Virus record (IMG/VR): IMGVR_UViG_3300012344_000014
Coordinates: 42,581 to 106,580 of that record
Length of the DNA stretch: 64,000 nucleotides
Reading direction: 5' to 3' (one strand)
Source: a virus
Taxonomy: Duplodnaviria; Heunggongvirae; Uroviricota; Caudoviricetes
Position 1 is the stretch's first letter; each line of letters begins with the position of its first letter. Position numbers and translations under genes: made by a program. Shown here piece after piece: positions 4,548-52,800 of this stretch. The notes below the pieces were generated by a model, which saw only the letters and a program-made list of their open reading frames with translations, had not been told where the DNA came from and ran no database searches.

Positions 4548-5759
4548 ATGCCTCAGACCACAATTGCAACTGAGATTGCGCGTATACAGACAGATAGAAA
4601 TACAATCAGAACAAAATAGGTCGACCTTGGCCTTGCAACTTCGACGGCGACGCTGGACGATTTAGCAGCCGCGATTGAGGGGATCGAAAACAGGGGCGCG
4701 GTCAACGCCAGTGTCACTGAAGGCAACACCTATACCATCCCGAAGGGTTATCACAACGGGAGCGGCACCGTCGCGGGCGTTGCGGGCGGCGGCAACTACA
4801 CGCTGCAGGCGAAGAGCATCACGCCCACAAAGAAGGGACAGAACGTCACTTCCGACGACGGGTATTACGGCCTGTCTGCTGTAACCGTCGCGGCGATCCC
4901 CGAAGCTTATCAGGACGTTTCGAGCACAACTGCTGCGGCCGGGAATGTCTTGGCTGGTAAAGTGTTCGTCACGGCGGCGGGCACAGTCACGACCGGTACG
5001 ATGGTCAATAACGGCGCGGTTGCAAAGACATTGGATGCATCGACGACCAGCTATACCGTTCCTGCCGGATACCACAGCGGCGCTGGAAAAGTGCAGATCG
5101 TGACGGAAACCAAGTCTGTCACGCCTGCGGAATCTGCGCAGGACGTCACGCCGACAACCGGTAAGGTGCTGAGCAAGGTAACCGTCGGCGCAATCCCGGC
5201 CAAGTACGCGGACGCGACCGACGTGAGTGTTACGGCCGATAAGCTGCTCAAGGACGAAACCGCAATCGGCTGGGACGCGGAGGCGGAGGCCCCTGTGGCC
5301 GTGACCGGCACCATGCCGAATAACGGGGCTATCTCAAAGACACTGGACACAACGACAGCCAGTTATACCATTGCGAAGGGCTATCACGACGGTACCGGCG
5401 TGATTAAGCTGGTAACGGAAACCAAGTCCGCTACCCCGACCGAATCCACGCAGACAATTTCCCCGACAGCCGGCAAAGTACTTTCGAGCGTCACTGTGAA
5501 TCGTATTCCGACCAAGTACAAGGACGCGACCGGCATGACCGCCACGGCGGCGGGGATGCTGGCGGATACGACGGCGATCGGCTGGGACGCCGCCAAGTCG
5601 CTCCCTGTTGTGCTGACCGGTACAATGGCAAATAATGGCAGCGTTACTACCACCATCGACGGCCTGACGACCACTTCGGTTTCTATCCCTGCCGGTTACA
5701 CGACTGGCGGAACTGTTTCTCTCACTGATGATATTTATACCGCTCTTGCGGCGATTTAA
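4548..5759 (+). CDS. tail protein with four tandem ~90-aa repeats; in-frame TAG at 4617-4619 read as sense
   Basis: ATG at 4548 (RBS aaggag). The sequence MPQTTIATEIARIQTDRNTIRTK-TAG-VDLGLATSTATLDD... runs in one frame into ORF 4950-5759. Repeats of '...TTSYT.P.GYH.G.G.V.IVTETKS.TP.ES.Q..PT.GKVLS.VTV..IP.KY'. Confidence 0.65.
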
Positions 5760-8789: not shown

Positions 8790-9608
8790 ATGATTTTCAA
8801 CAGAATGATCGGCGGCGGCGGGAAAGCGACGATAACATACAGCGGAACCCACACGACCGAAAGCTATACATTAAACGGGCAGACCTATACGTAGTATAAA
8901 ATTACCGGCTCGGGTACATTAACCGTCAAAGGCAAAGCGAAAGGCGTCAAGGTGTGGCTTTGCGGAGGTGGGGCAAACGGATTGGGTGGAGATGCTTCTG
9001 GTGGCGGGCGTGGCGGCGGCGGAGCGTTTTGTGCTCAGTATGACAGCCAAAAGTTATCCGGCGTATACACGATTGCAATCGCAAGTGGCGGTGGGAACAG
9101 CAGTATAACCACAAACGGGAACGTTGTTTTCTTAGCAAATGGAGCTAGCGGCGCGAACGGCGGCACGGGCGGCGGCGGCTCGGACGGCACTGGCGGCACG
9201 GGTGACGGAGTGACGAAGTATCCGTTCAGTGATTCCACCACTTTTCAATGTCATTGCGCGGGAGGCGGCGGCGGTTCAGGTAAGTATGTCACAAACTATG
9301 ATTGGGATAACTACACAGAATATTCTAATGTAGCTTACGCCGGGAATGGCGGTTCCAACGGCGCGGCAGGCGGTAAAGGCTCGTCACCCGTAACTTACAG
9401 CGCACGTAATGCTCCCGGAGGAAGCGTCGGCGGCGGAACCGGTGGCTCTAAGTCCGCGGGAAGCGCTGCGACGTTCTATGGGAGCGGTGGAGGTGGCGGC
9501 GGGAGCGAAGATTATTCCATTTCGCACGACCCCGGCTACGCAAACCGGAGTTACAGCGGCGGTTCCGGCTACCAAGGCATTGTATACTTACTCGTTCCAA
9601 TTGAATAA
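8790..9608 (+). CDS. glycine-rich protein, paralogue 2; in-frame TAG at 8892-8894 read as sense
   Basis: ATG at 8790 (RBS agggataaaggg). 'TLNGQTYT-TAG-YKITGSGTLTVKG...VWLCGGGANG' aligns across the TAG with paralogues 7677 (TYTQYTITGSG) and 12744 (TYDLYTLTGSG). C-terminus 'GSGYQGIVYLLVP'. Confidence 0.6.
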
Positions 9609-42201: not shown

Positions 42202-43064
42202 TTACACAGATAAATACCAGGCCATTACCTCTTCAGGCGAAGACCACAGATCGTTCGGCAAACCACGTTCGTCCCGCGCTTTCAACATCCGGTCGAACGC
42301 GCGAAGATACGCTTCTTCATATTTCGGATATCGTTCAAAATCGCGCTGGCGATTTTTTACGGAGCCCATCGGGCAACCGATACAGCCGAGCCGGCCATAG
42401 CCTTCATCATACAGACGGCAATGCGGAACCTGAACCACATCGTTCAGGAAAGACCAGACTTCCTCTGTCGACCAATCGATGATGGGGTTGACGAGCGTTT
42501 TCATGGTACGATAACAAACTTCCACCATACGGCGGGACGAATCGTTATCATCGTTCAGGATGATACCGCCCTTCGAGCCTTCATGGAAATCGATGCCGCG
42601 CGTTAACGCAATCCGTTTCGCCCTTGCGGGCTGCTGGAGGATTTCCACAGAGCCGTGCATGGCGGCGCGGCGAGGGCTTTCCGCCCAGCGGACGCCCGTT
42701 ATTGTAACACGCCCCTACCCGCCGGACTCTTTCAGATCGGCACAGCAATACCGCGCGCTCCGGGACGGCGGCTTGCCAACGGCGGGAATCAAATTCCACA
42801 TGGTGATCGGGTTTCCGGCCGCGTTATACGGGATTTCCCGCGCTACGTCAGGATAATGATCCCGAATGAAACGAACCAGTTCAGGCGGGTCCACGCTTGT
42901 GACGCGATAATGCGCATCAAATTTAACGCCGGCCATTTCGCACAGATGATAAACGCATTGAGAATCTTTGCCGCCGGAGAAGGCGACATAGTACCCCTCT
43001 TCGGGCTCGAAGGTACGCAGCTTCAGGAGCGCCGCGTCGATTTTTCTCTGATCGATCATCATCT
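42202..43064 (-). CDS. PAPS reductase-family (PP-loop ATP pyrophosphatase) protein with in-frame TAG (42715-42717)
   Basis: The N-half (ORF 42715-43116, 'AFSGGKDS' PP-loop) and C-half (ORF 42202-42660) are in the same frame, separated by one TAG: ...CADLKESGG-TAG-GRVTITGVRWAESPRRAAM... Start ATG overlaps the upstream TGA. Confidence 0.65.
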
Positions 43065-43931
43065 CTCCAATATCTCCTCGCAGAGGGGGCAGGAATTCAG
43101 CACGCCGCAGATCCACCGGCAGAAATACTTATCTTTATGCGGCCTCCAATCAAACTCAAAGAGAATTTTCTCGATCGTATCGACGACCCAGGCCATGGCG
43201 GCGTTATATGCGGCCGCGTCGAACGGTTCATCAATGAAGGTGCCATCCCGGAACATGTTGAAGCGCAGCCGGGCGGGGAAAACGCCGAATTTCTGCTTGA
43301 CAAACGCGGCGTAAACATAGAGCTGCTTGCGATAAGTATCCAGTTCCTTTTTCATGGAGCTCATGGACTTGGATTTATGATCGATGACCTCAATTTCGCC
43401 GGTTTCGCGATTTTTGAGCACCAAGTCGGCGATTCCAACGAAAGGATAACCGCCGATTTCAATTTCGAACCGCTCTTCAGCGGCCAGAATATCATATTGA
43501 TCACCGAAGCCGGAGAAAGTCTCGAAATATTCAAGGCCAGCGTCGTAATATTTCTGCGGCATGCCTTTGGGGAACGGGGGGAAGGAGTGCTGAAGCGCCT
43601 GATCATATCCTTCCTCATACTCGGACGCCATAAGAAAGTCGGGGAGCTCGCCCTTCGCCCATTTTTCCAGAATTTCATGACAGTGCGTACCGTATTCGGC
43701 GAAGGCGTTATTCTCATTGGGGACGCGATCGATATACTGGAGTTTATAAGCCAGAGGACATTGTTCAAAGGTTGCCAGACGGGAAAAAGACCACTTGGTT
43801 TCGGGAGGAATAGCGGCATCACCTCGATGGATATGGTATAATGGCTCTGCGCAGACAACGCCGAGCCAAGCCTTTATAAAAAGGAAGGTGTAACGACTGG
43901 ACACGGAGCGCCCTGCAAGGGGCGAAGGCAC
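43059..43931 (-). CDS. PD-(D/E)XK nuclease, Cas4/RecB-like, with C-terminal Cys cluster
   Basis: '...IADLVLKNRETGEIEVIDHKSK...QLYVY' nuclease core and 'CRWICGVLNSCPLC' Fe-S-like Cys cluster. Confidence 0.7.
   Translation of the reverse strand: MPSPLAGRSVSSRYTFLFIKAWLGVVCAEPLYHIHRGDAAIPPETKWSFSRLATFEQCPLAYKLQYIDRVPNENNAFAEYGTHCHEILEKWAKGELPDFLMASEYEEGYDQALQHSFPPFPKGMPQKYYDAGLEYFETFSGFGDQYDILAAEERFEIEIGGYPFVGIADLVLKNRETGEIEVIDHKSKSMSSMKKELDTYRKQLYVYAAFVKQKFGVFPARLRFNMFRDGTFIDEPFDAAAYNAAMAWVVDTIEKILFEFDWRPHKDKYFCRWICGVLNSCPLCEEILER
43825..43842 (+). promoter_or_regulatory. extended -10 promoter (TGgTATAAT) driving a structured ~190-nt leader and small ORF
   Basis: ggatatggtataatgg at 43831-43844. 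Confidence 0.45.
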
Positions 43932-44036
43932 AGTCTGAACTTACGGGCGACTGTAAGAGCCGCAAGGCCCCGCAGACAACAAGGCGGGTAACAAATTGCG
44001 AAAGCCGGTGGGAGAATTTGGAGGTTTATCGAAAGA

Positions 44037-44378
44037 ATGTCAATTTTAATTTCATAGGCGTTGTCCTATTGGTTGCAAGTCATAGGAAACTATGACGGAT
44101 TGGTTCACTTGTTCCCGACCGCCGCGGCGACCCCGCCGGGCAGATTGTTGCTGATGGCAATCGCTATCGCGCTTGTCGTCTTTATGGTACTGTACGACCG
44201 ACCCCACCATGAATGGTCAAAAATGATGGCCCCATACCGCGGTAACGCGGTATTTGGAATCTCCGTAAATTCGGCGAACGTCTGCGCGTTCCCGTTACAC
44301 CTTCGGGGGGGAATGTTTTATTTATCAGCCTTCAGCGCGGTGACGGCGGCCAGCTTTCGGGCTTCCTCTTCGATATAA
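44037..44378 (+). CDS. small hydrophobic protein, family copy A (conserved core NYDGLVHLFPTAAATPPGRLLLMAIAIALVVF); in-frame TAG at 44055-44057
   Basis: RBS ggagg. Paralogue of 61206-61442 with mostly synonymous differences in the core. The 3' extent is uncertain: a hairpin terminator lies at ~44237-44262. Confidence 0.35.
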
Positions 44379-51843: not shown

Positions 51844-52800
51844 TCACCACGGCAGCGTATTCACCGCCCTCGCGAGCTGCTCGGGATGGGAGTGATCATA
51901 CCGGTTGGTAACGCGCAGAGACGAGTGGTTCGCGCAGTCCCTCGCCACGCCGGCGCCGTTACGCTTTTCAACCTCGGAGATGAAAGTATGCCGCAGGCAA
52001 TGAGGCCCTGTGGCAAGGCCGAGCTGTTTCTGCTTGAATGCGAGCGCGCCGTAAACGGTTTTGCGGTTCATCGGCTGACCGTGCGTGGAGAGGAAGAGCG
52101 GGCGGGAATGATCGTCCGCGTCGGGGCGGGTTTGAAGATATGCGTCGAGCACGTCGTAGAACGAATCCTTAACGTAAACATCCTCCCAGTTGCCGCCCTT
52201 GCGTTTGCAGTAAATTTTGCCGCGTTCGCCGTCGAGCACGTCGCCGATGGTCAGGGCGCACAGCTCGCTCACGCGCATGCCGGATTCCAGAATAAGCGTG
52301 CAGATGGCGCGATCGCGCAGTTTATTGCGGCCGGGCATATCGCCGAGCAGTTTGCGCGTCTGCTGGACGGTCATGTATTTCTCCTTGCGCTCCCATTTGG
52401 GGACGGCCTTCTCATTGGGGAGCTTATGCGTGGTCAGCACGCCGCTGAGATCTTCCGCCGTGGCCTGCGCGACCTTCCACGCCCAGCGGAGGAACGGGTT
52501 GAGCATGCAGACGTAATTATTGCGCGTCGTCATCTTGCAACGAACGGACAGATGGTTATAATACGCATCCAGCACGGACGGCGTAAGGCCGGAGAGTTCG
52601 TTCTCCCCGACCTGCACGCCGTAGTTCCGCTCCAGCTGCCGGAGGATGCGGTTCAAGACCTCGGCGCAATGCGCCGCTGAAACATCCGAAGCGCCGCCCG
52701 CCTTATAGCTTGCGGCGTAGCGTTCAACCAGCCTGTACATTTCCCTGTTCCCTCCTTCTGCGCGCGGCGACGATCTGCTTATATTCCTCAACGACCTCAT
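51844..52800 (-). CDS. tyrosine recombinase (XerC/D/phage-integrase family)
   Basis: 'HCLRHTF' and 'RVTNRYDH' (R-H-R-Y catalytic residues). Confidence 0.8.
   Translation of the reverse strand: MRSLRNISRSSPRAEGGNREMYRLVERYAASYKAGGASDVSAAHCAEVLNRILRQLERNYGVQVGENELSGLTPSVLDAYYNHLSVRCKMTTRNNYVCMLNPFLRWAWKVAQATAEDLSGVLTTHKLPNEKAVPKWERKEKYMTVQQTRKLLGDMPGRNKLRDRAICTLILESGMRVSELCALTIGDVLDGERGKIYCKRKGGNWEDVYVKDSFYDVLDAYLQTRPDADDHSRPLFLSTHGQPMNRKTVYGALAFKQKQLGLATGPHCLRHTFISEVEKRNGAGVARDCANHSSLRVTNRYDHSHPEQLARAVNTLPW

Follow-up and report, generated by a model that had tools for sequence, protein, structure and literature searches.

A phage accessory cassette specifying an end-paired, structured mRNA with an in-frame TAG and a possible likeness to type I toxin mRNAs

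What is the function of a single plus-strand unit that lies between minus-strand genes of a gut phage? The question is raised by locus A, a cassette at positions 43834-44325 on the plus strand of a 64,000-nt stretch of the Caudoviricetes record IMGVR_UViG_3300012344_000014 (positions 42,581 to 106,580 of that record; the whole stretch is called the window here). Locus A is placed antisense between replication and recombination genes, and the region 43825-44378 occupies a gap of approximately 500 nt separating two minus-strand genes. A first-pass annotation, made from the sequence alone, had described this region as a small hydrophobic-protein locus with a type I (hok-like) toxin mRNA. The predicted RNA of the cassette is approximately 470 nt long and contains nine or more supported helices, of which several are GNRA-capped. 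The type I interpretation is partly supported, since the RNA architecture and the translated hydrophobic open reading frame (ORF) fit it, no antitoxin or family match was found, and the proposed terminator is wrong; locus A appears to be like a type I toxin mRNA in its architecture and is a candidate member of the class.

Locus A consists of a promoter, a leader with four hairpins, a GGAGG, an ATG, five codons, an in-frame TAG, and a core of 48 codons. The leader, put at about 190 nt in the first-pass annotation, measures approximately 188 nt from a predicted transcription start near 43849 to the ATG. The parts on which the argument depends are as follows.

43834-43842, plus strand: extended -10 promoter TGGTATAAT, with no usable -35
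43848-43865, plus strand: 5' arms of helix H1, with outer arm UGCGCAGAC (43848-43856), an AA bulge, and inner arm CGCCGAG (43859-43865)
43884-43895, plus strand: 5' arm of helix H2, GAAGGUGUAACG
44020-44024, plus strand: Shine-Dalgarno (SD) sequence GGAGG, within the most conserved stretch of the element, GGGAGAAUnUGGAGGUUU
44037-44057, plus strand: ATG, five weakly conserved codons, and the in-frame TAG (44055-44057), which is codon 7
44058-44201, plus strand: coding core, LQxxxNYxGLxxLxPTA...G.LLLxAIAIxLxVFxxLxDR
44270-44288, plus strand: 3' arms of H1, with inner arm UUCGGCG (44270-44276), an AAC bulge, and outer arm GUCUGCGCG (44280-44288)
44289-44313, plus strand: terminal hairpin whose loop holds the 3' arm of H2, with a poly-G tract (44305-44311) and followed by a U-rich tail (44314-44325)
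44293-44304, plus strand: 3' arm of H2, CGUUACACCUUC

Ten further distinct copies of the element, plus several near-identical assemblies, were found in related phage contigs. L001 to L003 (short ENA contigs) were found via three homologous peptides in a large protein collection, and the flanking nuclease and antirepressor proteins led to further copies. The element is carried at the nuclease site by L131 and L132 and at the antirepressor site by L137, L138, L139 (with near-duplicates L140 and L142), and L141, and L143 to L146 are four further assemblies of the window's own phage. The window also contains a second, leader-deleted copy, paralogue B, which was detected by sensitive self-BLAST, has Bro/Ant genes as neighbors, and retains the end pairing and the core ORF; a full-length element is present at its site in related phages. 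The first-pass annotation had let its proposal depend on conservation in related phages, and the element does recur, with conservation, at two genomic sites of related contigs. In L133 to L136, which are more distant relatives of the nuclease locus, the genes are tightly packed and the element is absent; it is a patchily distributed accessory cassette in one phage lineage with genomes of approximately 117 to 123 kb in more than 60 sample blocks.

The TGgTATAAT promoter proposed earlier was confirmed at 43834-43842; a sigma-70 two-hexamer scanner did not report it because it has no -35. The motif TGNTATAAT occurs 8 times in the window compared with 1.1 occurrences expected, a count reached in none of 100 shuffles, which indicates that the extended -10 promoter is a genuine trait of this genome. 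TATAAT is found at the same place in every copy with a 5' end, and TGnTATAAT is found in all copies but L139 and L141, in which a TA insertion displaces the TG. The conserved promoter motif and the structure described below support the earlier view of a discrete, promoter-driven, antisense-oriented unit with a structured leader.

The main pairing between the two ends of the RNA, which the first-pass annotation had missed, is H1. This helix of 9 plus 7 bp (43848-43856 with 44280-44288 and 43859-43865 with 44270-44276) joins the predicted first transcribed bases to sequence approximately 420 nt downstream, appears in single-sequence folds, and pairs in every cell in the four type-A copies (alignment A7). 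L002 and L132 carry GUGCAGAC/GUCUGCAC instead of GCGCAGAC/GUCUGCGC, a double substitution of C-G by U-A. The inner part of H1 is identical at the antirepressor site, where the outer 5' arm is an unrelated sequence of 23 to 25 nt that still pairs (approximately 23 bp), so that the outer arms are GCGCAGAC/GUCUGCGC in one case and the unrelated GUUCAUGUCCACGGUUGAUGGAAGA/UCUUCCAUCAACGGUGGACAUGAAC in the other, around the same inner CGCCGAG/UUCGGCG. The presence of two unrelated pairing sequences at the same position is the strongest argument that the pairing itself is selected, and it also argues against a DNA-level repeat. Together with the compensatory changes, it bears out the earlier suggestion of conserved pairing between the 5' and 3' ends. 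In the B-type copies and L132, CGCCGAG at the 5' end, CGCCGAGA and UCUCGGCG in the ORF, and UUCGGCG at the 3' end are mutually complementary (window 61289-61311 and equivalents), which allows alternative pairings and may constitute a folding switch; the copies of locus A, L002, and L131 do not have alternative complementarity of the CGCCGAGA/UCUCGGCG type.

H2 is the 12-nt complementarity noted in the first-pass annotation. It is perfect (100%), and the 3' arm had been placed correctly at 44293-44304, but the 5' arm is at 43884-43895, 2 nt away from the 43886-43897 given before. A perfect inverted repeat of at least 12 nt was obtained in 1 of 200 shuffles. The match is kept without variation in all four type-A orthologues and extends to 13 nt in L002. 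H1 and H2 cross each other and would form either a pseudoknot-like contact or alternative states.

The structure as a whole was taken from the window copy and scored on alignments of 7 and 10 copies, and its remaining elements are as follows.

43895-43899 with 43931-43935, plus strand: leader stem Pa, which encloses Pb
43909-43913 with 43920-43924, plus strand: leader stem Pb, with a G-C to A-U double change in L132
43940-43957, plus strand: leader hairpin Pc, 7 bp with a GCGA loop, with A-U/G-C and G-U/G-C/A-U variation
43959-43968, plus strand: leader hairpin Pd, with a GCAA, GUAA, or GCGA loop across copies (GCAA in the window)
43969-43988, plus strand: leader hairpin Pe, with G-C to A-U and C-G to U-A changes
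44079-44096, plus strand: in-ORF hairpin, 7 bp with a GAAA loop (GCAA or GUAA in relatives)
44121-44141, plus strand: in-ORF hairpin closed by GCC...GGC
44153-44180, plus strand: in-ORF hairpin, 8 plus 3 bp, in the segment coding for the transmembrane part
44234-44253, plus strand: internal hairpin after the core, 8 bp with a GUAA loop (GCAA, GGAA, or GCGA in relatives)

In total, 87% to 93% of the structure cells pair, compared with 29% to 42% when the partners are slid, and 17 pairs change on both sides, compared with approximately 8 ± 1.7 to 1.8 in shuffles (0 of 500). Against shuffles, the fold z-score is -4.4 for the plus strand and -2.6 for the minus strand. The three leader hairpins drawn in the first-pass annotation all exist, each with compensatory changes in relatives, and the second is better drawn as Pc, with 7 bp and a GCGA tetraloop. 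The junction sequences of the leader are near-invariant among copies. Covariation continues into the coding region. In the hairpin at 44079-44096, 4 of 7 pairs have both partners changed between copy types and 95.7% of cells pair, the pairing being kept at the cost of amino acid changes (VIG...D versus AVS...S); in the two hairpins at 44121-44180, it likewise survives nonsynonymous changes, with 96% to 100% of cells pairing.

The GC-rich hairpin with a GNRA-type loop that had been placed at 44237-44262 is also real and shows a C-G to G-C double change (helix 13), but its coordinates are 44234-44253 and it does not act as a terminator. Its supposed T-tract is merely TTT here and TC or TT in orthologues, and the hairpin is internal, with the 3' partners of both long-range helices downstream of it. 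The terminal hairpin with its U-rich tail (44289-44325) is likely the end of the transcript. The poly-G tract at 44305-44311 contains 6, 7, 8, or 11 G in four assemblies whose locus is otherwise identical to that of the window; this variation may be slippage-prone sequence or an assembly artifact, and it also shifts the frame of the ORF tail.

The ribosome-binding site, small ORF, core, and TAG were given correctly in the first-pass annotation (GGAGG at 44020-44024, ATG at 44037, and TAG at 44055-44057), and the formal ORF of the window copy runs to 44378. Differences at codon positions 1, 2, and 3 number 5, 8, and 21 between L002 and L001 and 3, 10, and 20 between L002 and L003, and synonymous changes are frequent in one frame only. 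The concentration of substitutions at third codon positions indicates that the ORF is translated, and the small hydrophobic ORF thus appears, from these comparisons, to be a real coding unit. Its product contains one strongly hydrophobic helix (residues ~36 to 52, with a Kyte-Doolittle value of 3.25 over 15 residues) followed by a polar tail, and is approximately 55 to 66 amino acids (aa) long in copies with a stop, which agrees with the small hydrophobic membrane-type peptides (under ~60 to 70 aa) of type I systems. L002, L132, L138, L139, and L141 reach a stop soon after the residues DRP. The tails of L138, L139, and L141 contain a second in-frame TAG about 10 codons past DRP, on the 5' side of the GNRA hairpin (CCCCAUAG), with a TAA a few codons beyond.

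Of the 11 distinct copies having the start region, 10 share the first in-frame TAG without variation, the exception being paralogue B (CGT), and L143 to L146 match the window copy in this region. The first six codons are poorly conserved as protein, with nonsynonymous changes at least as numerous as synonymous ones. An in-frame TAG is also present in the PAPS reductase gene (42202-43116, minus strand), within a conserved LKESGG-x-GRVT motif in which orthologues have V. A single Pfam domain match spans this TAG, and the same split gene is found in four other assemblies. An in-frame TAG thus occupies a conserved position of an essential domain, as in TAG-reassigned (code 15-like) phages, and this phage evidently needs TAG as a sense codon in its PAPS reductase, to judge from the sequence comparison. 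In the window, TAG terminates just 2 to 4 of 44 long ORFs. Plus-strand ORFs in the structural region (e.g., 4548-5759, 8790-9608, and 13747-14250) become longer and contiguous with their neighbors if TAG is sense.

As the first-pass annotation had stated, the flanks of locus A are on the opposite strand. The two adjacent genes are as follows.

~43810 down to 43059, minus strand: PD-(D/E)XK nuclease gene
44872-44318, minus strand: unannotated gene of 184 aa

The other minus-strand neighbors encode the PAPS reductase, a DNA ligase, a sigma-70 region-4 protein, and a primase-helicase, and the cassette is therefore antisense to a replication and nucleotide metabolism operon. No minus-strand terminator was found between 44318 and the nuclease gene, and operon transcripts would therefore be antisense to the cassette. 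The coding start of the nuclease abuts the cassette promoter, so that the two transcripts must overlap, the 5' untranslated region of the nuclease with the promoter and 5' end of locus A. In the region of that start (43800-43931, minus strand), the nuclease gene has no canonical start codon near the N terminus that its homologues show. Extension of the nuclease ORF into the leader from an in-frame GTG at ~43931 or ~43904 was rejected, as a 2-nt indel in L002 and L132 breaks the frame, and a start at ATT/ATC after GAGGTG seems likely.

These features are best accommodated by an autonomous accessory cassette whose stable, folded mRNA of about 470 nt would encode a peptide of approximately 55 to 65 residues, held off by structure and by a code-dependent stop. 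A host-type extended -10 promoter would start transcription at ~43849. H1 would pair the first bases with sequence approximately 420 nt downstream and H2 would reach the loop of the terminal hairpin, so that both RNA ends would be buried, as in hok and AapA1, and the full-length RNA would be long-lived and poorly translated. Ribosomes loading at the GGAGG and ATG would stop at the TAG under the host code, and the full peptide would be made by read-through of the TAG or by low-level re-initiation at a TTG, ATG, or GTG just downstream. Transcripts of the opposing early operon could act as neutralizing RNA. This interpretation, an inert, stable, end-paired mRNA of the hok/AapA1 kind for a membrane-active peptide with additional gating by TAG, is the best that we can offer, and we hold it tentatively, at a little under an even chance.

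The resemblance to hok/sok includes most of these features. In hok mRNA, tac/fbi end-pairing joins the extreme 5' end of the message to its 3' end, the toxin is preceded by a leader frame, and in the hok mRNA family the structure is reported to be conserved and to covary through the coding region. Locus A likewise appears to have a small hydrophobic peptide on an extensively folded mRNA, end pairing, a leader frame, and covariation in the coding region. However, it has no Hok homology and no Sok-like antisense gene, its leader frame is in-frame and terminated by TAG whereas mok overlaps, and it differs in its C-proximal helix, 150-nt GNRA-rich leader domain, Gram-positive-type promoter, and phage context.

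More generally, the key structural descriptors of type I toxin mRNAs include 5'-3' long-distance interactions, 3' stem-loops, and control of the SD sequence (PMC8594479, PMC6733600, PMC9841398), and leader ORFs are also annotated at type I toxin loci (PMC8594479). In Helicobacter pylori, the full-length AapA1 toxin mRNA stays inert through a 5'-3' long-distance interaction, and its folding pathway is embedded in the mRNA (PMC6733600). Locus A would share with aapA1/IsoA1 such an interaction, but the AapA1 interaction sequesters the SD sequence directly, whereas no conserved anti-SD sequence was found in locus A, and there is no sequence or taxonomic relation. Type I modules are also known from prophages of Clostridia, which they stabilize (PMC7699646). 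Those of Clostridioides difficile would resemble locus A in placing a small membrane peptide on a temperate phage of Clostridia (PMC7699646), and toxicity of the locus A peptide would be an analogy with them; they differ in having defined overlapping antitoxin RNAs, short mRNAs, and N-proximal helices, and no homology to locus A was seen. Lysis-related membrane proteins have been proposed to be kept from premature expression by recoded stops in their reading frames (bioRxiv 10.1101/2021.08.26.457843). Locus A would be similar in having an in-frame reassigned stop in a small transmembrane protein of a gut phage (bioRxiv 10.1101/2021.08.26.457843), but those regulators are heavily recoded and lie in lysis cassettes, whereas locus A, with its single TAG (codon 7), is surrounded by replication and antirepressor genes and has its own promoter and an elaborate RNA fold.

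Several findings weigh against an inert toxin mRNA. Predicted occlusion of the SD sequence is inconsistent, being open in locus A and closed in L132, and no conserved anti-SD sequence was found across copies, the partners differing between copies. H2, being invariant, is conserved but without covariation support, and at the antirepressor site it is absent or merely 7 bp (by eye, in L003-like copies). The peptide tail after DRP is unconserved, an A-run of 3, 4, or 5 bases puts copies in different frames, and the window copy, L143 to L146, and L131 have no stop ahead of the 3' structured region. The hydrophobic helix lies near the C terminus, whereas most described type I toxins carry it near the N terminus. 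A scan for tRNA and tmRNA genes in the 64-kb window found none and hence no suppressor tRNA there. The antisense antitoxin small RNA that the first-pass annotation had suggested looking for was not located, and no conserved minus-strand -10-like element was found within the aligned loci. Searches of the peptide against Pfam, NCBIfam, and PHROGs matched no toxin, holin, or other family. Nor is the locus set in a lysis cassette next to an endolysin, as a phage holin gene would be; the neighbors are those named above at site A and Bro/Ant genes at site B. Among 5.8 billion proteins there were only three homologous peptides, and a profile search of 1.84 billion representatives gave one real cluster (P0001), a second match (P0004) being a spurious translated tandem repeat, so that there are essentially no relatives outside this phage lineage. 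A nucleotide search of the INPHARED phages gave no match, and no true match came from IMG/VR, JGI metagenomes, or GTDB genomes when these were searched with patterns derived from the peptide and with DNA patterns. Paralogue B, whose parts are listed below, is a further difficulty.

61143-61442, plus strand: paralogue B, leader deleted
61143-61151, plus strand: promoter motif TGTTATAAT
61152-61176 and 61379-61403, plus strand: 25-nt arms, 96% complementary
61178-61188, plus strand: AACGCCGAGCC
61206-61442, plus strand: ORF, with CGGCG at 61370-61374

This copy has lost the leader and carries GUAAG in place of GGAGG, TTG in place of ATG, and CGT in place of TAG, while the first nine codons have diverged wholly by nonsynonymous change. 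Paralogue B is either decaying or used differently.

The strongest rival to the TAG-gated, end-paired mRNA concerns its gating step. Under the standard code, TAG would be a true stop closing a 6-codon, mok-like leader ORF, and the main frame would be translated by re-initiation 2 to 6 codons downstream at TTG, ATG, or GTG. All TAG-containing copies have an in-frame start-type codon of this kind within six codons after the TAG (TTG CAA is universal, and ATG or TTG is present at +2 in most), which makes termination and re-initiation a live alternative. It also agrees with the poor protein conservation of the first six codons, with the lack of a suppressor tRNA in the window, and with the leader ORFs annotated at type I toxin loci (PMC8594479). 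However, re-initiation would not need the leader codons to share the frame of the main ORF, as they do, paralogue B has CGT at the position and reads straight on, and TAG is evidently needed as sense in the PAPS reductase. We consider such coupling possible but unlikely; it is compatible with the toxin idea and would replace only the gating step, and the two are not mutually exclusive.

A second rival dispenses with toxicity. The ORF may encode a benign accessory (moron) membrane protein, e.g., for superinfection exclusion or host modulation in the lysogen, with the structure just protecting the mRNA from end-dependent RNases. An independent promoter and terminal hairpin, the opposite orientation, the sporadic presence (with absence from the site in L133 to L136), and an SD sequence that is not reliably occluded are all consistent with a moron. 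In addition, an MBL-fold (Lactamase_B) gene directly follows the element on the same strand in L132 (2678-3457), where its GGAG/ATG replaces the terminal hairpin right after the 3' arm of H2, which indicates that the cassette can carry a second gene. The phage encodes a large serine recombinase (15920-17605, minus strand), a tyrosine recombinase (51844-52800, minus strand), and at least three Bro/Ant antirepressors (57907-59052, 60590-61126, and 61414-62172) and is probably temperate. However, the invariant TAG at codon 7 is left unexplained if the protein is harmless, as are the leader of four hairpins with its near-invariant junctions and the in-ORF structure kept despite amino acid changes, and simple stabilizers are usually short terminal hairpins rather than two long-range helices. 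This explanation is accordingly regarded as unlikely, with a minority chance of being right. Even on this mildest reading, locus A would be a new accessory cassette with a new structured leader in a widespread gut phage of about 119 kb.

A stronger version of the TAG-gated toxin mRNA is a code-gated toxin or lysis timer, in which the inert mRNA would be made from the host-type promoter, possibly already in the lysogen or in early infection, and the membrane-active peptide would be made only after the phage switches the cell to TAG as sense. We regard this version as rather improbable. If it is true, hok-like folding control would be joined by stop codon reassignment as a second lock, with the GNRA-rich leader domain as a new fold among regulatory RNAs. 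If the main, TAG-gated reading is right, locus A would be the first case known to us in which an end-paired toxin mRNA of the hok/AapA1 kind occurs in a phage with an alternative code and has a conserved recoded stop at the beginning of the toxin frame. A TAG-gated toxin mRNA, if real, would allow a direct test of the proposal that stop codon reassignment times membrane-active proteins. The RNA is also compact and supported by covariation, with overlapping coding and structural constraints, and suits studies of mRNA folding pathways.

The third rival holds that locus A is a structured regulatory RNA, possibly dual-function, e.g., antisense to the leader of the nuclease mRNA, with the ORF secondary. 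Several conserved hairpins with GNRA caps, single-stranded junctions that hardly vary, and a closing helix are what a functional RNA typically shows, and the plus-strand z-score, the overlap with a nuclease transcript whose coding start abuts the promoter, and the unconstrained ORF tail point in the same direction. They are opposed by the clear codon position periodicity, a peptide core conserved across both sites, and the conserved SD sequence and ATG, and the unrelated neighbors at the second site argue against a neighbor-specific antisense role. In addition, Rfam 15 gave no matches at the gathering score in the window, and a search at E ≤ 10 of the window, paralogue B, and three orthologues gave nothing credible. 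The one match at that level, to the group I intron RF00028 (15.4 bits compared with a threshold of 50; E of 0.27), has its upstream half in the nuclease gene and promoter, outside the conserved element, is not matched in L001 to L003, and is attributed to chance. A tmRNA-like architecture was likewise dropped, as an SD sequence, an ATG, and a conserved ORF of 55 codons are present. The probability of a regulatory RNA with a secondary ORF is therefore considered small.

A DNA-level element, in which the inverted repeats would be the ends of a miniature mobile element (MITE) or a recombination site, is suggested by the 25-bp near-perfect inverted repeat of paralogue B, the patchy distribution, and the two copies per genome but has only the slightest chance of being correct, given that the two sites have wholly different arms around a conserved interior, G-U pairs are tolerated, compensatory changes reach many internal hairpins, the a-b...a'-b' order is unlike that of nested terminal repeats, the repeat does not include the promoter, and no target duplication was seen in the flanks.

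Beside locus B, two more TGNTATAAT promoters, at 59974-59982 and 60381-60389 on the plus strand, lie amid minus-strand genes. The second precedes an ORF of 100 aa (60408-60710) with a hydrophobic C terminus, and these promoters may mark a cluster of independently transcribed accessory genes.

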